Shown here piece after piece: positions 10,616-40,914 of a stretch of 55,631 nt of DNA (its first letter is position 1; each line of letters begins with the position of its first letter). Under the pieces are notes generated by a model that made no database searches, had not been told where the DNA came from, and was given only the letters and a program-made list of their open reading frames with translations. The translations under genes were made by a program, and so were the position numbers. The stretch comes from an uncultured Mycoplasmatota bacterium (GTDB taxonomy: Bacteria; Bacillota_I; Bacilli_A; RF39; UBA660), in NCBI GenBank assembly GCA_946494015.1, contig CAMMBL010000003.1, forward strand, positions 1 through 55,631, in the 5' to 3' direction.

Positions 10616-10776
10616 TTAAAAACCTCCTATTATATTAAGCATATCTTGCTTACATAATAAGGATACCATGAAAGCCTTTTTAAATCAATGATTTTTAGTG
10701 TTTTTAAAGATAAAAATAAAACAGTTATTTTTATTAAAATATTTTTATAACTGTTTTATATTTCTTGATTTTTTAT

Positions 10777-11253
10777 TTAATTACTAGGAATTTTTAATAT
10801 TTGACCAACAGACAATAAATTAGTTGTTAAATTATTCAAAGATTTAATTGCATCTACTGTTGTATTAAATCTATTAGCTATACTCCATAAACTATCTCCA
10901 CTTTTAACCGTATAATTAACAGGAGTTATATTATTAGAAGATGGTATAAGTAAAACTTGACCTATAGAAAGTAAATTAGATGTTAAACTATTGGCATCTT
11001 TTAAAGCTGCAACTGTAACTCCAAATTGATTGGCAATACTCCATAGACTATCTCCAGACTTTACAGTATAAGTATTTGTAGTTATATTATCATTATCATT
11101 ATTATTATCTTCTTCTAAATCATCACTAGCACTAATACCAGGAATAATCAAAGACTGTCCTATGCTTAAAGTATCACTAATTAAGTCATTTGCATCCCTT
11201 ATTTCTTGAACTGTAATTCCAAATTTCCTAGCTATACTCCAAAGGTTATCTCC
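10777..11253 (-). pseudogene. 3' fragment of the interrupted amidase-LysM gene (rest of LysM4, LysM5, LysM6)
   Basis: The open frame extends 34 codons upstream of the tracked 11151 start as GDNLWSIARKFGITVQEIRDANDLISDTLSIGQSLIIP, beginning exactly at the attachment core. It is in frame with the 5' fragment. Confidence 0.93.
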
Positions 11254-11269
11254 AGATACATTTTTTATG
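11247..11269. repeat. Left attachment junction (core TATCTCC plus arm AGATACATTTTTTATG)
   Basis: Read directly; the arm is the 15/16 reverse complement of the arm at 15369-15384. Confidence 0.92.
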
Positions 11270-12830
11270 TAACATTTTTAAATGTAAATATAATATCTAT
11301 CGTTTTGTCCTGATAGATATAAATTTTTTCAACCAAATTTATTATCAATTCTCTAGTTGGATTTTCTAATGATAAAAATTCATTAATATATTTTTCTATC
11401 ATTTTATTATCTATTTTATTGGATTCACTATTTTCATTTTTAAGATTATCAATACTTGATTTATTATTTTCTATTTCATGCTTTAGATTTTCACTAACTC
11501 TTATATATTGTTCTTCATCAATAATACCCTTTAACATATTCATATAATTTTTATCCAAAGTTTCAGTTAAGTTATTATTTGCAAATTCTAAACTTTCTAT
11601 TTGCTTTTTTATTTTTAAAGTATTATCTATAGGGCTTATATTACCAATAGATTCTTTTACCTTATTTCTATCTAAATACTTTTTGCAAACTCCTTTTATA
11701 TTATCTAAAATAATCCTTTCTAGATTTTCATAATTGTTTGTATGAGTTGTGCAAACATGATATTTAGAATATGTTCTGTAATAATCACAAGTGGTATAAC
11801 TTCTACCTGTTTTATTTTGGTATCTAATTGTTATTCTGTGTTTACAATCTCCACAATATAAAAGCCCATCTAATAAATAAAATCTTTTTTTATCAGGTCT
11901 TTTAACATTTTTAGGTAGTAAAGTTTGTACATAATTAAATTTATCTCTATCAATAATTGCCTCATGGGTATTCTCAACTATAATATAGTCATTGGGGTTA
12001 TTTTTAACCGTCTTTTTAAGTTTATAATTAATCTTTTTAGTTTTACCTTGAACTGTATCTCCTACATATATCTGATTAGTAAGTATTGCTTTTACAGTAG
12101 TATCAACCCATATACCATATTCTTGGCTTATACAATTTGTATTTATGCACTTTGTATTCCATACATAATTATAATAAGATGCTGGAGTTTTAATTTTTCT
12201 TTCTGTAAGATATTGTGCTATATAATGGTAGGTATTACCTTTTAGTGCTAAATCAAATATCAATTTAACAGTATCTGCTTGTTCAACATTCACTACTAAA
12301 TGATTTTTATTTGTTGGATCTTTTATATAACCAAAAGGACATCTACCAGATACATATAATCCTTCTTTCATTCTAGAATGTAAACTTGTTTTAACTTTTT
12401 TAGAAATATCTTTAGCATACATATCATTCATTATTGCTTTAAAAGGTGCTATGTCATTATTAGTATTATCTATAAATGTGTCTATACCATCATTAATAGC
12501 AATATACCTAACATTTTTATTTGGAAAATACTTTTCTATTAATTCACCTGTACCAATATAATCTCTACCTAATCTAGACATGTCTTTGGTAATAATCATA
12601 TTGATTTTACCAAGTTCAATATCTTTCATCATTTTTTTGAATGCTGGTCTATCAAAATTAGTTCCTGAAAATCCATCATCAACATATTCATCTACTACTA
12701 TGTAATTATTTTCTTTAACATATTGTTTTAGTAAACTTCTTTGACTAATAACACTATCAGATTCTATTTTTCCATCATCTCTTGATAATCTTATATATAA
12801 TCCTACTTTAAAACTACTATTCCCAATCAT
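11265..12830 (-). CDS. Large serine recombinase (resolvase, recombinase and zinc-ribbon domains; SpoIVCA/TnpX-like)
   Basis: YIRLS catalytic Ser, YVDDGFSGTNFDRPAF, KDMSRLGRD, PFGY, HEAIID, CGDC...C...C zinc ribbon, 521 aa. Confidence 0.96.
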   Translation of the reverse strand: MIGNSSFKVGLYIRLSRDDGKIESDSVISQRSLLKQYVKENNYIVVDEYVDDGFSGTNFDRPAFKKMMKDIELGKINMIITKDMSRLGRDYIGTGELIEKYFPNKNVRYIAINDGIDTFIDNTNNDIAPFKAIMNDMYAKDISKKVKTSLHSRMKEGLYVSGRCPFGYIKDPTNKNHLVVNVEQADTVKLIFDLALKGNTYHYIAQYLTERKIKTPASYYNYVWNTKCINTNCISQEYGIWVDTTVKAILTNQIYVGDTVQGKTKKINYKLKKTVKNNPNDYIIVENTHEAIIDRDKFNYVQTLLPKNVKRPDKKRFYLLDGLLYCGDCKHRITIRYQNKTGRSYTTCDYYRTYSKYHVCTTHTNNYENLERIILDNIKGVCKKYLDRNKVKESIGNISPIDNTLKIKKQIESLEFANNNLTETLDKNYMNMLKGIIDEEQYIRVSENLKHEIENNKSSIDNLKNENSESNKIDNKMIEKYINEFLSLENPTRELIINLVEKIYIYQDKTIDIIFTFKNVT

Positions 12831-13009
12831 TAATTATTTCTCCTTTCCTTTTGGGAATAATGAGTATGATTGAATGGTAGCTCTAAATTTAAAATATTAC
12901 AAGTCTTATTAATCTTTTTTTGTAATTCAATTTTTAATACTTCAGTTATTGTTTCGTTTAAAGATTTTCCATTTTCTTTAAACTTTAAATTAACTTTGTA
13001 TTCAACCAT
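12830..13009 (-). CDS. 59-aa basic protein coupled to the recombinase (candidate recombination directionality factor)
   Basis: ATG at 13009 after GGAGG; stop overlaps the recombinase start; the ORF track gives a 65-aa version. Function is inferred from position only. Confidence 0.6.
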   Translation of the reverse strand: MVEYKVNLKFKENGKSLNETITEVLKIELQKKINKTCNILNLELPFNHTHYSQKERRNN

Positions 13010-13109
13010 AGAGTTTATTACCTCCATTTAAACCTATGGCATTAACTTTAATTTTAGTAATATTATTTGGTATGCATATTACATACTCAAAAATATTACT
13101 TAACTTCAT
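13002..13109 (-). CDS. Unannotated 35-aa ORF (MKLSNIFEYVICIPNNITKIKVNAIGLNGGNKLYG)
   Basis: GGAGG RBS; overlaps both neighbouring small ORFs. Confidence 0.35.
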   Translation of the reverse strand: MKLSNIFEYVICIPNNITKIKVNAIGLNGGNKLYG

Positions 13110-13456: not shown

Positions 13457-14182
13457 TTATTTTTGTTTAATGGTTTTTAATTTTTCATCATAATAATTAA
13501 ACATCTTCTGAATTATATTATCACCAAATTCATTAATCGTTGAAAAATCTGACATTAAATTTTTAAATTGCTCAATACTTAATATTTCTGATAAATATCT
13601 TATAGATAGATAACTTAAATCATAGCCATTATAGTTATCATTAATGAAAGAATTTCCATGTTTTAAATTATTCATTTGAGGTATTACTTTGGTTTGCTCC
13701 CTTACCCTTAAATAAAAATCATTAAAAACACCTGAATCGTTCAGTGAATCTTTTTCTCCTGACATAAATTGTGCCATTCCTTCATCGTACCAAACTATCC
13801 TTTTTGAATAATCATTGTGCAATATATATTTCATATATAAAATATGAAATAATTCATGGCTAGCAGTATACAATCTTTTTAACTGGAATTTAGGATTCAC
13901 ACACGCATTAACCATTTCATTATCATAAGTCCCTGTAGCATATTCGGGTAACGAATCTCTTTCACCTCTTAAAGAATATATAAATTCTCTAAATTCTTCT
14001 ACATTATCAAAATAATTAACAACTATTGGTTCATCACTAGAAATACTAAAAAATAATTTATATTCTTCTATCTTTTTATTAAGTAAGGAAACAGTTGCTT
14101 GTGCTAAATTTTCTAGGCTCTCTGAATAATTTATTTCACACAAGTTTGTTTTTAAACTTTTTCTCATTTTCATCACCACCAC
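13457..14182 (-). CDS. Gluzincin-type zinc metallopeptidase (MA clan-like), no signal peptide evident
   Basis: SHELFH (HExxH) followed by WYDEGMAQF (third-ligand EG.A motif) and C-terminal Y..SYL.I.YL helix. Confidence 0.72.
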   Translation of the reverse strand: MVVMKMRKSLKTNLCEINYSESLENLAQATVSLLNKKIEEYKLFFSISSDEPIVVNYFDNVEEFREFIYSLRGERDSLPEYATGTYDNEMVNACVNPKFQLKRLYTASHELFHILYMKYILHNDYSKRIVWYDEGMAQFMSGEKDSLNDSGVFNDFYLRVREQTKVIPQMNNLKHGNSFINDNYNGYDLSYLSIRYLSEILSIEQFKNLMSDFSTINEFGDNIIQKMFNYYDEKLKTIKQK

Positions 14183-14184
14183 AA

Positions 14185-15264
14185 TTAACTTTCTAAATCT
14201 TTTTCAGATAAATTTAACATATTCCTAGCTCTCAATAAGAGTTGCTGATAAGTAAGAATATGTATATTGTGATAAGAAGAATTCAATATTCTTAAATATT
14301 TTTTTTCTTCATCACTTAATTCATTCTTAGTACCAATTAATATAATACCTCTTGGTCTTGCTATGACACAATCATTATCATCTTGATAACTATTATTTGA
14401 AGTCATTTTTTCTAATTCAAAAATATAATTTTGAGTTTGTGCAATTGCTTTTGTTAATTCACTAGATGAATAATAATTTTTATGATTCGTATCATAATGA
14501 AATAACTCCGCAGTTGGTAATTTAACTTCTATTATATCAATAAAATCCTCTAAATTTTTAGGAATACCATCTAATATATTTTTAGAATTAATTTTTTCTT
14601 CTTTTACAAAAGTACAATATTCACTCCCAAAAAGCCACAAATTTTTCTTTAAAAATTTTTGTATAAAAACTTCATTTTTAAATTTACCATTAATTATTTT
14701 TTCTAGATCTAAAATTGCTTGTTCTTTCATTTTAATATTTACTAATTTATAATAATCATCTATGCTATCAATATTATTTTCTATTAATTTAAGAAAATCA
14801 TTTTTTGAAATAGCTTTATTATAATTGTTATTAGAAGTTTGAATTTTATATGACAAATCATTATTACATAATTTTATTTCATCTAAAAATTGTTTTAAAA
14901 CGCTTATTGCGTGAGGGTTTAATGTTACTTCTTGTTCATTGTAGATATTGCCTTTAGATGTTCTTCTACATATATGTAAACCAGAAGTTTTATTACCTTC
15001 TTCTGTCTCAACAAGCCAACACCAATATTTCTGTTGTCCTGTTGGTGATTCGAATAATTTTATCTTTTCTGAAATTTTAAATTCAAGAGATTGCTGTCCA
15101 ATCTCATATTGTTCTTCTGTATATGTATTTCCGCAATCTGATATTGCCTCAGCCATTCTATAATTATCTCCATCCTCTTTATTTATTTTTTTACCTATGT
15201 ATATTTTTCCATCTTTTTTATTATCATCAAAATTCGGATTAAAATTATTCAAGCAAATCACCAC
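14185..15264 (-). CDS. Shedu (SduA/DUF4263)-like anti-phage nuclease
   Basis: E.FIQKFLKKNLWLFG.EY, D...D.IEVK.P (PD-(D/E)xK), ELTKAIAQ..NY, PRGIILIG, I.ILTY..LL.RA: the DUF4263 core, preceded by an unrecognised N-terminal domain. Confidence 0.75.
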   Translation of the reverse strand: MVICLNNFNPNFDDNKKDGKIYIGKKINKEDGDNYRMAEAISDCGNTYTEEQYEIGQQSLEFKISEKIKLFESPTGQQKYWCWLVETEEGNKTSGLHICRRTSKGNIYNEQEVTLNPHAISVLKQFLDEIKLCNNDLSYKIQTSNNNYNKAISKNDFLKLIENNIDSIDDYYKLVNIKMKEQAILDLEKIINGKFKNEVFIQKFLKKNLWLFGSEYCTFVKEEKINSKNILDGIPKNLEDFIDIIEVKLPTAELFHYDTNHKNYYSSSELTKAIAQTQNYIFELEKMTSNNSYQDDNDCVIARPRGIILIGTKNELSDEEKKYLRILNSSYHNIHILTYQQLLLRARNMLNLSEKDLES

Positions 15265-15298
15265 CCAAAGTTTTTAGTTATCTATAATTATATCATAT

Positions 15299-15327
15299 AA
15301 AAAGGCACTTTTCTTAAAAAAGCCCTT
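15299..15327 (-). terminator. Intrinsic terminator supplied by the element downstream of the truncated amidase
   Basis: Minus strand AAGGGCTTTT-ttaag-AAAAGTGCC-TTTTT hairpin plus U-tract, 27 nt after the new stop codon. Confidence 0.55.
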
Positions 15328-15353
15328 AAGATTCCTTGTGATTTTAAATATTT

Positions 15354-16538
15354 CTACTCATTATTCCCCATAAAAATTGTATCTCCTTTTTCTACTGTGT
15401 AATAAAAGACAGCACCATTATTATCTCCTTGATTATTATTTTCACCACTAACACCAGGAATAGTTAGAACTTGGCCTACACTAAGAGTATCAGTTACAAG
15501 ATTATTAGCATCTCTTATTTGTTGAACTGTAACTCCAAATTGATTAGCAATCTTCCATAAACTATCTCCTTTTACTACCGTATAAGTAGTAGAGGGCTGT
15601 GTTTGATTATTATCTTCATTGTCATTACCTGCACCAGGAATTATTAAAACTTGGCCGATACTAAGGACATCACTTGTCAAATTATTAGCTCTCCTTAAAT
15701 CATTAACACTAATACCATAACGACTTGCTATACTCCATAAACTATCTCCCTTTTGAACAGTATAAGTAGTAGATCCACCTATATTATTATCATTATTTCC
15801 ATTATTACCAGGTATTCTTAAAACTTGTCCTACACTAAGAAGATCAGTTGTTAAATTATTAGCATCTCTTAACTCTTGTACAGTAACTCCAAAGCGATTA
15901 GCAATACTCCAAAGACTATCTCCTTTTTTTACTGTATAAAAATTAGTACCACTTCCTTCTGGTGGAGTATAAGGAACTCCAGCATATTCAGCAATTGCTC
16001 TAACTACTGCTTCTACATAATTTAATAAATCATTTTGTAACTTAACTCTATCATTAGCATTATCAATAAAACCATACTCTACAAGTAATGATTGCATAGG
16101 AGAAGTTTCTCTAATAATATAATAATAATCTTTTGAAGGATCTTCTGGTAATCTTCTTTGATAATATTTACGCATAATTTGTCCTTCAGAACCAATTTCT
16201 TCTAAAATATTTTGAGCTAAAGTAGAAGAATTACGCAAAGCATAAATAACTTCAGCACCTTCTCCTCCTCCAGCATTTATATGATTAGAAATAAGTATAG
16301 CATCCCTACTTCCACCAAAAGCCTCATTAGCACGTCTAAGCCGTTCTTCTCTACTCAAATTTTCATCAAAATCTCTTGTTAAAACTGCTGGTATACCTAG
16401 TTCTTGTAATCTTTCATACATATATAAAGAAGCATCTAATGTAAAATTTTTCTCTTGCAAGCCACCACTAACAGCTCCAGGATCAGAACCTCCATGTCCC
16501 GCATCTACAACAACACCTGTTACTCTACGCTCATTCAT
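15354..16538 (-). CDS. N-acetylmuramoyl-L-alanine amidase (Amidase_3) with 3 LysM repeats; 5' part of the interrupted gene
   Basis: VVVDAGHGGSDPGA, EKNFTL, ISNHINAGGGEGAE, LLVEYGF; three complete LysM repeats, then YTVEKGD breaking into the element-derived tail TIFMGNNE. Start at ATG 16538 after GAGGTG. Confidence 0.93.
   Translation of the reverse strand: MNERRVTGVVVDAGHGGSDPGAVSGGLQEKNFTLDASLYMYERLQELGIPAVLTRDFDENLSREERLRRANEAFGGSRDAILISNHINAGGGEGAEVIYALRNSSTLAQNILEEIGSEGQIMRKYYQRRLPEDPSKDYYYIIRETSPMQSLLVEYGFIDNANDRVKLQNDLLNYVEAVVRAIAEYAGVPYTPPEGSGTNFYTVKKGDSLWSIANRFGVTVQELRDANNLTTDLLSVGQVLRIPGNNGNNDNNIGGSTTYTVQKGDSLWSIASRYGISVNDLRRANNLTSDVLSIGQVLIIPGAGNDNEDNNQTQPSTTYTVVKGDSLWKIANQFGVTVQQIRDANNLVTDTLSVGQVLTIPGVSGENNNQGDNNGAVFYYTVEKGDTIFMGNNE
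15369..15386. repeat. Right attachment junction (arm CATAAAAATTGTATCT plus CC; core TATCTCC 15380-15386)
   Basis: Read directly. Confidence 0.92.
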
Positions 16539-16901
16539 AATATTCACCTCTACATTAAAATATGTAAAAAGGCCTATTTTGCTACTATTATAAGCATTAA
16601 GCTTAATAAAACTAACTATATTTTAAAAAATAAAAGATTTTCTAATGATGAAATATTATAAAACCAAAATAAAATATTAACAACAACAAAACATAACTTA
16701 AAAAAATTTGATAGAGGTGTATTTTCTAAAATGGAAAACAATACCAATGCTAAATTAAATACACTAGTAAAAAACTTACAGGCAAAAAAAATAACCTTTT
16801 GCTTTTTAGCAATACGGCTATTTTTATATAACAAATTACTTAATAACTTTTTATAGTTTTTGATATTAAATTCAATAAACTTATAATTCTTTCTTATTAA
16901 T

Positions 16902-18170
16902 CTACCAATCTCTATCTTGATAAGGAGTACTTTCAATACCTTCATTTTGCAATTTTTTTACAAGCTTATCTAATTTACCTTTCCACAATTTTTTAAACCA
17001 TTTAGTATTACCAAAAAGTTTAACTATTGTTGGACTAATAGTATAATATGTATGAATAAATAATCTTCCATACCACGTTTTTGCTAATTTATAATCTCTA
17101 TATCTTCTTAATGTCCAAACCTGAGGACAATCATATGATCCATAAACACAAGTAGCAACATAACATCCACCAGCATTACTATTAGATGGAGCTGGTCTAG
17201 GTGGTACTTCATAATTAGGATCAAGTTCTTTAATCTTATTATGATATTCCATAATCTTATCTATTAATTGTTCTTTATATTCTACTTTCCAAAATTTATC
17301 AGTAACCCATCCTCCCCTTTGTGAGCTATATGTATAAGATTTAGCCGCTTCAAGATCTGTTGTAATAATAATCAAATTTTTATAAATTTGAATATCATTT
17401 TCTTTATCATCATCACACAAACTAATAGCTGTTTCTAATAATAATATAGCTCCTTTTGTTTTCTCAGTATAATTTTCAAAATCATAATCATTAGGATGTC
17501 CATCTCTACCTACATAATCAGCCCTAATTTTATTATAAGCTGAAACAACAGAAACATTAATAACATCAGCTAACTCAGCATTTATATCATCCATATTAGC
17601 TTTGCATTTTATTAAAAACTTTAATGCAATTTTCTTTATTGTAAGTATTCCATTTAATATAGTATTTGCTTCTGATACACTTCCATATTTAGCATAATTC
17701 TTACAAGCAAGAGAAACTAATGCACTACATAAAGTTGTTGTTTCTTTAATCGCTTCTTTTTTCATTTCTTTAACTCTATCTTTAGGAGCACTATCAATTG
17801 CTTTTTGAAAAGCATTTACCGACTCATCAATTCTTAAATTTGCTAATGTAGATTGCCATCCAGCCGCTTTACCTTTCAATAACCAAGCATCACAATTAGT
17901 AGGTTCAATTTCAATAATTTTATTACAATAATTTTCAGCTTCTTTTTTATTATCAGCATCATAAGCATTATTTGCCATCATTAAATAATTTTTAATTTTA
18001 TCAGTATCATCAACTTTAACTTTACTTCCAGAAACATCTACTTTTCCTTCAACCATCATCTTCTTAGCTTCTTCAACAGAATATTTTGTCCCACAACTCT
18101 GACAAACAAACACATTATCCTTTTTTAATAAATCATTACTACCACACATTTCACATACAATTTTTTTCAT
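16902..18170 (-). CDS. TFIIB-type zinc ribbon + TPR + CFI-box-CTERM domain protein
   Basis: CEMCGS...CQSCGT; TPR-like EAENYCNKIIEIEPTNCDAWLLKG; C-terminal GGCYVATCVYGSYDCPQVWTLRRYRD...GRLFI.TYY.ISP. Confidence 0.8.
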   Translation of the reverse strand: MKKIVCEMCGSNDLLKKDNVFVCQSCGTKYSVEEAKKMMVEGKVDVSGSKVKVDDTDKIKNYLMMANNAYDADNKKEAENYCNKIIEIEPTNCDAWLLKGKAAGWQSTLANLRIDESVNAFQKAIDSAPKDRVKEMKKEAIKETTTLCSALVSLACKNYAKYGSVSEANTILNGILTIKKIALKFLIKCKANMDDINAELADVINVSVVSAYNKIRADYVGRDGHPNDYDFENYTEKTKGAILLLETAISLCDDDKENDIQIYKNLIIITTDLEAAKSYTYSSQRGGWVTDKFWKVEYKEQLIDKIMEYHNKIKELDPNYEVPPRPAPSNSNAGGCYVATCVYGSYDCPQVWTLRRYRDYKLAKTWYGRLFIHTYYTISPTIVKLFGNTKWFKKLWKGKLDKLVKKLQNEGIESTPYQDRDW

Positions 18171-32121: not shown

Positions 32122-32874
32122 TCATTTAACTTCTAACTCTATCGGACAGTGATCACTTCCAAACACATCACTGTCTATTTTCATATCCTTTACACTCTCT
32201 ATAAATCTATTTGACACTAGAAAATAGTCAATTCTCCAACCTATATTCTTCTCTCTTGCTCTACCCATATAACTCCACCAAGTATAAGCATCAGTCCTAT
32301 CTTTATATAGATAACGATAAACATCAGTAAAGCCCCCATCTAAAAGTCTTGTAAAAGCATCACGTTCTTCAACAGTAAAACCAGCATTACCAACATTACC
32401 TTTAGGATTAGCAAGATCTATTTCTTTATGAGCAACATTAAAATCTCCACAAACTATAACAGGTTTCTTTTTGTCAAGGCTCTGTAAATATTTAAGAAAA
32501 TCTTCTTCCCAAGTCATTCGATAATCAAGCCTTGACAAGTCTCTCTTTACATTAGGAACATATACACAAACTAAGAAAAAGTCATCATATTCAAGTGTTA
32601 TAACTCTCCCTTCATGATCATGAATATCAACATCAATTCCATAAGCCACATCAAGAGGTTTAACTCTAGAATAAACAGCCACCCCAGAATAACCTTTCTT
32701 ATCAGCAGTATTTAAATAAAAGTTGTACCCCTCCGGTCTAAATGGAATCTCACTTTCAATTGCTTTAACTTCCTGCAAACAATAAACATCAGCATTAGAC
32801 TCTTTAAAGAAGTCTTCAAAACCTTTCTTTAAACATGCTCTAAAACCAGCTACATTAAAAGATACTATCTTCAT
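32122..32874 (-). CDS. exoA: Exodeoxyribonuclease III / AP endonuclease
   Basis: SFNVAG, CLQEVK, KGYSGVA, EGRVITLE, CGDFNVAH, YTWWSY, GWRIDYF, SDHCP. Confidence 0.96.
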   Translation of the reverse strand: MKIVSFNVAGFRACLKKGFEDFFKESNADVYCLQEVKAIESEIPFRPEGYNFYLNTADKKGYSGVAVYSRVKPLDVAYGIDVDIHDHEGRVITLEYDDFFLVCVYVPNVKRDLSRLDYRMTWEEDFLKYLQSLDKKKPVIVCGDFNVAHKEIDLANPKGNVGNAGFTVEERDAFTRLLDGGFTDVYRYLYKDRTDAYTWWSYMGRAREKNIGWRIDYFLVSNRFIESVKDMKIDSDVFGSDHCPIELEVK

Positions 32875-32881
32875 AATACAC

Positions 32882-33889
32882 CTACTTACTATTCATTGCT
32901 TGTAAAGCTGTAATTGCCACAACACCTACTATATCATTAGCATTACAACCACGTGACAAATCATTAACAGGTTTAGCAAGTCCTTGGGTAACAGGTCCAT
33001 ATGCTTTCGCATGAGCAAGACGTTCTGTAATTTTATAACCAATGTTTCCAGCATCTAAATCTGGAAAAATTAATACATTAGCTTTACCAGCAACACTACT
33101 ATTAGGAGCTTTACTCTTAGCAACAAGAGGAACAACAGCAGCATCAAACTGTAATTCTCCATCTAAATTAATATCAGGATATTCCCTCTTAGCCATCTCA
33201 ACAGCCTTTACTACTTTATCAACATCAGCACATTTAGAAGATCCAAAAGTAGAATGAGATAAAAAGGCTACATTAGGTTCTTCTTCTACCAATAATTTAA
33301 AAGTTTTTGCACTCTCTTTAGCAATCTCTACTAATTCTTCACTACTAGGATTTTGGATCATTCCACAATCAGAATAAACAAACACACCATTAGAACCATA
33401 TTCACAATTAGGAACAACCATTAAAAAGAAAGCAGAAGCAACTTTTGTATCTTTACTAGTCTTAATTATCTGTAAAGCTGGTCTTAGAGTATCAGCACTA
33501 CTATGACGAGCTCCAGAAACAACCCCATCAGCAAACCCGTTTTTAACTAACATATTAGCAAAATAAACATAATCATTTAAAATAGTATTTCTTGCTTCAT
33601 CTAAACTAATACCTTTATGTTTTCTAAGAAGATAATAGTCATTAATTAACTTTTCACTATCACTAAAAGTCTCTGGATTAATAATAGTAACCCCATTAAT
33701 ATCAATATTATTATCTTTAGCAAGACTTTCTATTTCACTTTCCCTACCTACTAAAATAATATCAGCGAAAGCTTCTTTTTTTATAATAGAAGCCGCCTCT
33801 AACACTCTAACATCATTAGATTCAGGTAAAACTATTTTCTTAAAATCAGCTTTAACTCTTGCCTTTATTTTATCAATAAATTCCATCAA
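32882..33889 (-). CDS. pta: Phosphate acetyltransferase
   Basis: IVLPESND.RVL, LRPALQIIK, DGELQFDAA, FPDLDAGNIGYK, PVNDLSRGC. Confidence 0.97.
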   Translation of the reverse strand: MMEFIDKIKARVKADFKKIVLPESNDVRVLEAASIIKKEAFADIILVGRESEIESLAKDNNIDINGVTIINPETFSDSEKLINDYYLLRKHKGISLDEARNTILNDYVYFANMLVKNGFADGVVSGARHSSADTLRPALQIIKTSKDTKVASAFFLMVVPNCEYGSNGVFVYSDCGMIQNPSSEELVEIAKESAKTFKLLVEEEPNVAFLSHSTFGSSKCADVDKVVKAVEMAKREYPDINLDGELQFDAAVVPLVAKSKAPNSSVAGKANVLIFPDLDAGNIGYKITERLAHAKAYGPVTQGLAKPVNDLSRGCNANDIVGVVAITALQAMNSK

Positions 33890-40398: not shown

Positions 40399-40438
40399 CT
40401 CCTAATTACATTTTATCATAAATACTTCTAACTTAATA

Positions 40439-40467
40439 GAACTTTTTATAAAGTAAAACATAAAGTA
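40439..40467 (+). promoter_or_regulatory. Sigma-K/E-like sporulation promoter of cwlJ
   Basis: GAAC-16 nt-CATAAAGTA fits the AC-N16-CATAnnnTA mother-cell consensus. Confidence 0.45.
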
Positions 40468-40473
40468 TATTAG

Positions 40474-40914
40474 GTGATCAAAATGTCCCAAATAGTTCAA
40501 TATACAAATAAAGAATTAGATTTATTGGCAAGATTAATGAGAGCAGAAGCAGTTGGTGAAGGAGAATATGGTATGTTAATGGTTGGTAATGTAGGAGTAA
40601 ATAGAGTCCTTGCTAATTGTTATACTTTTAAAAAAATTAATACCATAACACAAATGGTTTATCAAAATCCTGGCGGTTTTGCTGGTATTAATAGTCCTCA
40701 ATTTACATCAGGATCTACTATTAAAGAACGTGAATTAGCTCAAAGAAATTTAAAAGGTGAATGCTACTATCCTGCTACTAATGCCCTATGGTTTTATGCT
40801 CCTGGAAGAAATAACAACTGTATTAGTACTTGGTATGATCAAGCACTAGCAGGAAGATTTAAAAATCACTGTTTTTATGCTCCTGATCCTAATATTTGTC
40901 CACCCCTTCACTAA
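40474..40914 (+). CDS. cwlJ: Spore cortex-lytic enzyme CwlJ (Hydrolase_2)
   Basis: LDLLARLMRAEAVGEGEYGMLMVGNVGVNRV.ANC, LWFYAP, WY.Q...RFKNHCFY.P...C closely follow B. subtilis CwlJ. Confidence 0.88.
   Translation: MIKMSQIVQYTNKELDLLARLMRAEAVGEGEYGMLMVGNVGVNRVLANCYTFKKINTITQMVYQNPGGFAGINSPQFTSGSTIKERELAQRNLKGECYYPATNALWFYAPGRNNNCISTWYDQALAGRFKNHCFYAPDPNICPPLH

Follow-up and report, generated by a model that had tools for sequence, protein, structure and literature searches.

Several endospore formers carry elements with serine recombinases inside genes of the sporulating mother cell. In Bacillus cereus ATCC 10987 the element gin interrupts gerE, the 5'-GerE product is inactive, and excision takes place during sporulation and requires both GirC and GirX (PMC5595907). 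In the skin/sigK system of B. subtilis and C. difficile, as well as in SPbeta/spsM, an element bearing a large serine recombinase (LSR) likewise interrupts a mother-cell gene, is retained in the germ line and is excised under the control of a directionality factor (PMC5025042, PMC4191935, PMC5499854). Here, we describe a 4,133-bp island of 24% G+C that interrupts an amidase gene in an uncultured chicken-gut bacterium, whose genome measures 1.23 Mb with 26% G+C and whose relatives are annotated as Candidatus Onthousia in the class Bacilli. The gene lies on contig CAMMBL010000003.1, of which a stretch of 55,631 nucleotides was analysed (the window), and encodes a catalytic domain followed by LysM repeats. 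A first-pass annotation of the window had proposed that the island, by supplying a stop codon and a terminator, switches the enzyme between forms with three and six LysM repeats. We document the anatomy of the locus, its precise empty site, the conservation of the module at the island end, the choice of target and the sporulation genes of the host, and we favour, with moderate confidence, the reading that a mobile island, lodged in a cwlC-like amidase gene, has stop codon and hairpin as a module at its promoter-facing end, that the three-LysM enzyme is a by-product and that the full gene is regained by precise excision.

The island resembles gin in being non-phage, in its use of serine recombination, in its defence-type cargo (restriction-modification in gin) and in splitting what is probably a mother-cell gene, as well as in having a short shared core flanked by inverted repeats whose precise joining yields an intact open reading frame (ORF). 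It differs from gin in that truncation of the amidase keeps the catalytic domain, in its size of only 4.1 kb and in belonging to a family that enters any LysM of several genes; further, sporulation excision and its factors were established by experiment for gin, whereas the island is known from sequence. The skin and SPbeta elements are prophages, whole or remnant, and have a single fixed site in each gene, whereas the amidase offers at least three classes of site to different LSR lineages and holds up to three elements at once (in genome G007). A literature search for elements that interrupt cwlC or any other amidase found nothing, and the locus would extend the list of split and probably rebuilt genes (sigK, spsM, gerE, spoVFB, yabG) to a cell-wall lysin. 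Tn4451 and Tn4453 are serine-recombinase integrative mobilizable elements, the former with a resistance gene, a Mob protein and a loose choice of target. The island is similarly small, LSR-borne and devoid of conjugation genes, but its family targets the codons of the LysM motif Y-x-V-x-x-G-D.

On the side of the host gene, the nearest described counterpart is CwlC of B. subtilis, a mother-cell lysis amidase with SPOR repeats for wall binding. The amidase shares with it an N-terminal Amidase_3 domain, the lack of a signal peptide, C-terminal wall-binding repeats and a late mother-cell type of promoter, whereas its repeats are LysM and not SPOR (Pfam). The CwlC model gave no match, and among NCBIfam models only a sub-threshold CwlD match was obtained (75.7 bits against a cut-off of 221). 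We regard the amidase as cwlC-like in kind at most; it is not classed as CwlC, and orthology is not supported. The LysM modules of AtlA from E. faecalis are independent of each other and their number raises peptidoglycan binding additively (PMC4083421), which bears out the earlier statement that LysM number tunes binding. Together with a LysM-number study of L. lactis AcmA (Steen et al. 2005, as cited in PMC4083421), AtlA is the basis for expecting a three-LysM enzyme to fold and to bind more weakly than one with six, whereas these cases, as far as that paper presents them, are engineered truncations of secreted vegetative autolysins with no recombination control.

Anatomy of the island and its empty site

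The gene and the island are both read on the minus strand, where the island genes follow in the order Shedu SduA, HExxH peptidase-like protein, 65-aa ORF and 521-aa LSR. The features are, in window coordinates:

15381-16538, minus strand: 5' part of the amidase gene, codons 1-386, with Amidase_3, LysM1-3 and the first strand of LysM4; without signal peptide
15380-15386: left core copy TATCTCC (GGAGATA on the gene strand), the 7-bp junction facing the amidase promoter
14185-15264, minus strand: cargo gene 1, Shedu SduA-type nuclease (PF14082 SduA_C, E = 1.3e-19, 71.4 bits)
13457-14182, minus strand: cargo gene 2, HExxH metallopeptidase-like, with weak Peptidase_M9, Peptidase_MA_2 and flagellinolysin matches
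12830-13027, minus strand: 65-aa ORF overlapping the recombinase start, kept in G007, G051 and G063
11265-12830, minus strand: large serine recombinase, 521 aa, with Resolvase PF00239, Recombinase PF07508 and Zn_ribbon_recom PF13408, all above cut-off
11247-11253: right core copy TATCTCC, 7 bp, shared with 15380-15386
10777-11247, minus strand: 3' part of the amidase gene, with the rest of LysM4, then LysM5 and LysM6; 157 open codons, no start of its own
10708-10759, minus strand: native amidase terminator, a 13-bp stem with U-run, dG -11.6 kcal/mol, z = -3.0

Relatives of the recombinase were found at amino-acid identities of 99% in G051 (a figure that covers 275 residues lying on two contig ends), 87% in G007 and 82% in G063. 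In the last of these (L021, G063:C120) the cargo includes a tyrosine recombinase, giving an element with two recombinase types. The 65-aa ORF matches no Pfam family and is a candidate directionality factor or regulator; a conserved, sigma-A-like promoter of the form TTGACT-17-TATCAT precedes the operon that it forms with the recombinase. Joined to each other, the element ends read CATAAAAAATGTATC-TGGA-GATACAATTTTTATG, an imperfect palindrome around the core with 15-nt arms that are complementary at 14 of 15 positions, and this palindromic structure fits the attP of a serine integrase.

The 5' part of the gene runs from an ATG at 16538 (the ORF listing starts from a GTG at 16547) to a TAG at 15356-15354 and ends in ...AVFYYTVEKGD|TIFMGNNE*, the bar marking the point of entry into the island. 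Its product begins MNERRVTGVVVDAGHGG and leads straight into Amidase_3, with no signal peptide as read from the sequence by eye and not by a predictor, and aligns to the solved amidases 5J72, 7RAG and 1JWQ. As the first-pass annotation had stated, the catalytic domain and three LysM repeats are intact: Pfam places a complete Amidase_3 at residues 12-186 (profile positions 1-173 of 174), followed by three complete LysM repeats. On the far side of the island, an unstarted frame at 11259-10777 carries three more LysM stretches (Pfam), and joining the flanks from 15381 to 11247 across the shared core TATCTCC gives an ORF of 542 aa (545 from the GTG) with six LysM, which reads ...EKGDNLWSIARK... 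at the junction. The same annotation had suggested a weak start at 11151 for a free protein of two LysM. The AGGA-6 nt-TTG sequence does exist there, but the TTG encodes the Leu of GQSLIIPG, and three NTG codons inside the amidase gene, this one included, are paired with a tetramer resembling a Shine-Dalgarno sequence; we rejected the start as a chance pairing, leaving the free protein unsupported.

The unoccupied state of the site was found in nature. A protein search returned P0067, which equals the joined protein from Met122 to its end bar one residue, with LysM4 unbroken, and which is encoded on five contigs from different samples (L088-L092). These contigs align at 99.7-100% to window positions 16270-15380 and then from 11253 onwards, the two alignments overlapping by exactly the 7-bp core; the 5' part of the gene is 99.7% identical to the same part of the contigs, the 3' part is contiguous with it there, and the predicted 80-mer attB is present exactly in all five. 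A sixth contig, L093, repeats the occupied state together with the Shedu cargo. The island is thus an LSR integrative element by its domain set, its inverted-arm attP, its 7-bp core and its precise empty site. Because occupancy is polymorphic among strains that are 99.7-100% identical, a recombination-set difference between three-LysM and six-LysM coding sequences exists in nature, and to this extent the proposed switch in LysM number is supported; the further notion of a designed pair of three and six repeats fails on the variety of LysM targets described below.

In each of the five contigs with the empty site, the match to the window breaks off at 16270, codon 93 of the amidase, where other recombinase-bearing DNA begins. 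In L088 a DNA methylase and a MutH-like gene adjoin a 555-aa recombinase, and in L090 a protein kinase gene lies at the break. All seven alleles seen so far of the species are accordingly interrupted: five at codon 93 with LysM4 empty, the other two (the window and L093) in LysM4 with an uncut codon 93. No allele of the species free of any insertion turned up in a set of 5.8 billion proteins, the best intact match being 84% identical.

Stop codon, hairpin and likely promoter at the island edge

At the edge that faces the amidase promoter, three features follow one another in the direction of transcription:

15354-15380, minus strand: element-encoded tail TIFMGNNE (15380-15357) and TAG (15356-15354), in or beside the attP arm
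15297-15327, minus strand: terminator-like hairpin and U-run, AAGGGCUUUUUUAAGAAAAGUGCCUU plus UUUAUAU, dG -6.7 kcal/mol
15287-15295, minus strand: extended -10 box TGATATAAT, a likely cargo promoter as read from the sequence, 2 nt past the U-run

The gain of TIFMGNNE and a stop, followed by a hairpin with U-tract, is therefore present as first described; the hairpin has a stem of 11 bp with one bulge and 3 G-C pairs, and its tail reads UUUUUAUAU. Taken by itself, the stop codon is at chance level, as a frame that enters the element at any point ends after a median of 8 codons (6 in shuffles). The hairpin on its own is at chance level as well, with a z-score of -0.04 against dinucleotide shuffles, although it falls in the lowest 2% of mononucleotide shuffles, and a terminator scan did not call it at 15297-15327.

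It is the conservation of the hairpin in related ends, with pairing kept, that lifts it above chance. A metagenome scan for the element end yielded 32 contigs with 22 distinct ends, and a hairpin stands at the equivalent position in 14 of the 22, some of these being variants with G-C in place of a G-U pair; changes in the stem across relatives preserve the pairing. Thirteen other distinct ends have a stronger hairpin than the window (-8.2 to -10.9 kcal/mol), and the element ends of G007 and G051 carry AAGGCAUUUUGAAGAAAAAUGUCUU (-8.7) at the equivalent position, followed by UUUUACAUGGUAUAAU, even though the G007 element, with a recombinase 87% identical, holds different cargo. An extended -10 box of the form TG[AG]TA[TA]AAT lies at a fixed distance after the hairpin in 10 of the 14 hairpin-bearing ends. 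G007, G051, P0083 and the 32 metagenome contigs all keep the tail T[IF]FMGN[NS]E. Codon 9 is the stop in 17 of the 22 distinct ends, with TAA, TAG and TGA all in use, and a stop in the incoming frame lies upstream of every clear copy of the hairpin. Intrinsic terminators act only once ribosomes are off the RNA, and a stop codon ahead of the hairpin fits an insulating role for that reason.

Elements of other LSR lineages point the same way. Their promoter-facing ends at the two other sites of the gene, nine at site 0 (six distinct sequences) and both of those examined at site 1, carry a hairpin with T-run in 11 of 11 cases (-6.8 to -15.6 kcal/mol), counted when it lay within about 200 nt of the promoter-facing junction; under identical criteria 35 of 150 random 280-nt windows of the genome to which the island belongs scored (23%). 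The presence of entry hairpins in all 11 unrelated ends supports the reading of the hairpin as an insulator.

The position at which the family enters its targets is as constant as the number of repeats left behind is variable. In all 32 metagenome contigs the element end follows the GD of a Y/I-x-V-x-x-G-D motif, with no complete LysM upstream of the insertion in 20, one in 6, two in 3 and four in 3. Their hosts are mostly other Amidase_3-LysM genes without signal peptide, and also include an M23-like peptidase with LysM and LysM-first proteins. The recombinase of 99% identity in G051 sits in LysM2 (...VTYTVQRGD|TIFMGNSE*), with five LysM stretches on the other side; the G007 element lies within the third of five repeats; protein P0083 ends in GDTLFMGNNE after five complete repeats, which places the insertion in LysM6; and the relative of 82% identity in G063 occupies the last LysM of another gene. 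Close orthologues of the amidase range between 5 and 6 LysM only. Such varied targets suggest that the recombinase recognises the codon pattern of the LysM repeat and follows no fixed LysM design, the count of repeats left being incidental. An attB that consists of the codon pattern of a common protein repeat may be of interest for integrases with many natural landing sites. In eight loci (L123, L128, L133, L134, L139, L141, L143 and L145) the element end lies within an M23-type peptidase-LysM gene, in its first or second LysM; insertions of this kind were seen in many human-gut contigs, and the hairpin is lacking at those ends.

We propose the following course of events. Site-specific recombination would have placed the island in the Gly-Asp codons of LysM4, and as the recombinase appears always to land in one codon register of a LysM, the incoming host frame would be fixed. 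This frame would run through the attP arm (T-I/F-F-M-G-N-N/S-E) into the stop, with the hairpin and U-run about 30 nt beyond it and then the TGnTATAAT cargo promoter. The module most likely ends transcription and translation of the host gene at the island edge, the hairpin acting as a putative insulator against transcription from the host promoter, and would leave cargo and recombinase to the island's own promoters. A three-LysM amidase would probably be made whenever the host promoter fires, as a side effect and not as a designed state; it would probably be active but a weaker wall binder, since LysM modules are independent and binding is additive (PMC4083421). Precise excision would restore the six-LysM gene, either in the sporulating mother cell, as with skin and gin, or sporadically when the island moves. 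A stop followed by a hairpin is, by itself, ordinary housekeeping of a mobile element, and the first-pass view that the two are there for the sake of a tuned enzyme gives way to the chance level of the stop and to the hairpin being a conserved element-end module before a cargo promoter. What the locus adds is that entry in a single register may let an LSR island family build a fixed edge module of stop, terminator and promoter of its own.

Sporulation context and the amidase gene across the genus

The host genome encodes Spo0A (Spo0A_C, 140 bits), SpoIVA (363 bits) and sigma-K-like and sigma-E-like factors, and by this gene content the uncultured organism is best described as an endospore former. 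Upstream of the amidase lies the following feature:

16556-16585, minus strand: putative amidase promoter of mother-cell (sigma-K/E) type, GTAGCA-N15-CATATTTTA, about 8 nt before the ribosome-binding site (RBS) GAGGTG

It belongs to a 45-bp block, (A/T)AGTAGCAAAATAGGCCTTTTTACATATTTTAATGTAGAGGTG, that is common to 15 species, the DNA further upstream being unrelated. Within the block CATA..TA is invariant, and the three most divergent species keep CATA and TA with altered bases in between. In B. subtilis, the consensus for sigma-K is AC-16/17-CATAnnnTA. For the host genome we used a loose scan that asked for CATAnnnTA with an RBS within 30 nt and then read the bases at -18/-17: of 19 sites with CATAnnnTA 12-30 nt before an RBS and ATG, nine have AC and three GC, against an AC background of 4.7% of all CATAnnnTA sites. 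Genes behind AC/GC-N16-CATAnnnTA encode SpoVIF, a CwlJ/SleB-like protein, two collagen-repeat BclA-like proteins, a YqfQ-like protein, a superoxide dismutase and a GT2-TPR protein, a set with the look of a late mother-cell regulon in this uncultured spore former of 1.2 Mb, and the amidase genes hit by the LysM-targeting family in other taxa carry the same motif. We infer that the amidase is expressed in the mother cell. Loci of such genes with very short leaders are C8:31053, C34:5576, C1:6760(-), C30:8118, C6:7437 and C26:610. The CwlJ/SleB-type member of the set is in the window itself, at about 40,480: a stretch at about 40430-40910 on the plus strand holds the gene for this 143-aa hydrolase (PF07486) behind a textbook AC-N16-CATAAAGTA promoter, with an 8-nt leader to the RBS.

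Several observations weigh against the reading that we favour. A strict scan for GTNNCR-N15/16-CATAnnnTA is not enriched genome-wide, with 11 sites found against 14 expected. The hairpin of the window copy is weak and no different from dinucleotide shuffles, and a hairpin is absent from 8 of the 22 related distinct ends, for which reasons it may leak or be dispensable. An excised circle (attP) was not found among the 32 metagenome contigs with an element end. Additionally, the only conserved promoter of the operon of 65-aa ORF and recombinase looks sigma-A-like, which does not favour excision timed to sporulation; no mother-cell promoter is conserved before either gene, as the CCATAG that is kept there misfits CATAnnnTA and its AC spacing varies.

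The amidase gene is a frequent landing site throughout the genus. We surveyed 53 genomes, 40 of which gave an informative match to the catalytic domain:

12 genomes of 40: catalytic domain contiguous (including the window's own genome)
8 genomes of 40: catalytic domain without codons 1-13 only
15 genomes of 40: catalytic domain begins near codon 89 or ends at codon 93
5 genomes of 40: catalytic domain broken at both places

LSR elements of 8-23 kb thus cut the gene at codon 13/14, at codon 93 or at both in 28 of the 40 informative species (about 70%). The breakpoints, ...DAG|HGG... and ...HINAGG|GGEGAE..., separate the zinc ligands, and both hot spots are empty in the window, at about 16270 (codon 93) and 16500 (codon 13/14); related loci with these hot spots are L011, L013, L014, L015, L085 and L086. 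A search of 13 genomes located the separated promoter and its 13 codons in 10 of them, at a distance of 8-15 kb; codons 1-93, where detached, lie 11-15 kb away, and wherever sequence was available the gene for a serine recombinase of 539-562 aa adjoins the break. In G007 all three kinds of insertion occur in one amidase gene, leaving it in at least four pieces (L015 C13; L116 C9 8419-8523; C9 16587-16829), and its LysM-site element brings genes for two methyltransferases and a restriction enzyme, plus two unknown genes. All amidase fragments are open, with dN/dS of 0.09-0.25 between pairs of site-1-interrupted genomes. A sporulation-type amidase is, in other words, broken by islands in most species of its genus and still under selection, and this marks its sites as likely places for the exchange of anti-phage cargo, for instance Shedu and restriction-modification systems. 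Dating the insertions by co-divergence of site-1 recombinases and hosts was rejected, as identities do not track host dS: hosts at dS 0.08 carry recombinases only 54% identical, and hosts at dS 0.55-0.64 carry recombinases 96-98% identical. As the recombinases do not co-diverge with their hosts, the elements turn over and move between species. In G054, two copies of the amidase promoter block lie 3.3 kb apart (G054:C1:36137-36205 and 32794-32897; L118 and L120), one of which may be a remnant of an earlier element exchange.

This pattern bears on a possible, if less probable, alternative in which the split is a programmed rearrangement like that of skin: the island would be kept in the germ line, meaning growing cells and the forespore, and cut out in the terminal mother cell by the recombinase and a directionality factor, so that the complete six-LysM lysin would appear just at the time of need, and the truncated form would be irrelevant. 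Such a programme has precedents in gin/gerE, skin/sigK and SPbeta/spsM (PMC5595907, PMC5025042, PMC4191935). It would make sense of a host with the endospore core set, of an amidase with a conserved mother-cell-type promoter and no signal peptide, of a gene split at three or more sites in about 70% of species with fragments that stay intact under purifying selection, and of seven allele sequences of the species that are all interrupted somewhere. It sits less well with a promoter of sigma-A-like and not sporulation type before the recombinase or the 65-aa ORF, with the want of an excised circle among the 32 metagenome contigs, and with recombinases that share 96-99% identity where dS between the amidases of their hosts is 0.55-0.64, a pattern that could largely reflect turnover.

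The frequency of insertions that kill the catalytic domain could also mean that the gene is dispensable or redundant, the island having merely landed in a conserved sequence, so that truncated protein and excision have no role. The mother-cell lysis amidases of B. subtilis are redundant, CwlC with LytC, and every genome has a second Amidase_3 gene (CwlD-like, 31-34% identity). We nevertheless consider such a tolerated knock-down doubtful, given that no decayed fragment occurs in some 30 interrupted species, that dN/dS between site-1-interrupted pairs stays at the values above and that the promoter block is conserved even on detached pieces of 13 codons.

A more speculative reading, to which we assign a slightly lower probability still and which sets the first-pass proposal in a developmental frame, holds that throughout a clade of uncultured spore-forming gut Bacilli the late lysin gene serves as the standard germ-line-safe dock for up to three exchangeable islands that are removed in the mother cell, and that the LysM-targeting lineage turns it into a recombination-set rheostat of lysis and spore release. 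If so, the sparing of the catalytic domain by this lineage, which removes between one and all of the wall-binding repeats, would mean that failed or delayed excision leaves a graded, weaker lysin instead of none.

Least likely of all is the original proposal that host or element toggles the lysin between a weak three-LysM and a strong six-LysM state, with stop and terminator evolved for good expression of the short form: an intact catalytic domain with three LysM, modules that behave as independent beads whose number raises binding (PMC4083421), both coding states in near-identical strains and a stop retained in 17 of 22 distinct ends through all three stop codons speak for it, but the family hits LysM2, LysM3, LysM4 and LysM6 and mostly leaves no complete LysM, the catalytic domain is itself destroyed by other LSR elements in a majority of the species in the genus, the stop is no more than chance would give, hairpin and promoter are accounted for by the element's own needs, and close orthologues differ only by 5 versus 6 LysM.

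Upstream of the amidase, at 16902-18170 on the minus strand of the window, lies the gene of a 422-aa protein of zinc-ribbon/TPR type that has a CFI-box-CTERM domain (NF041770, 69 bits), and the DNA between this gene and the amidase promoter is unconserved across species.

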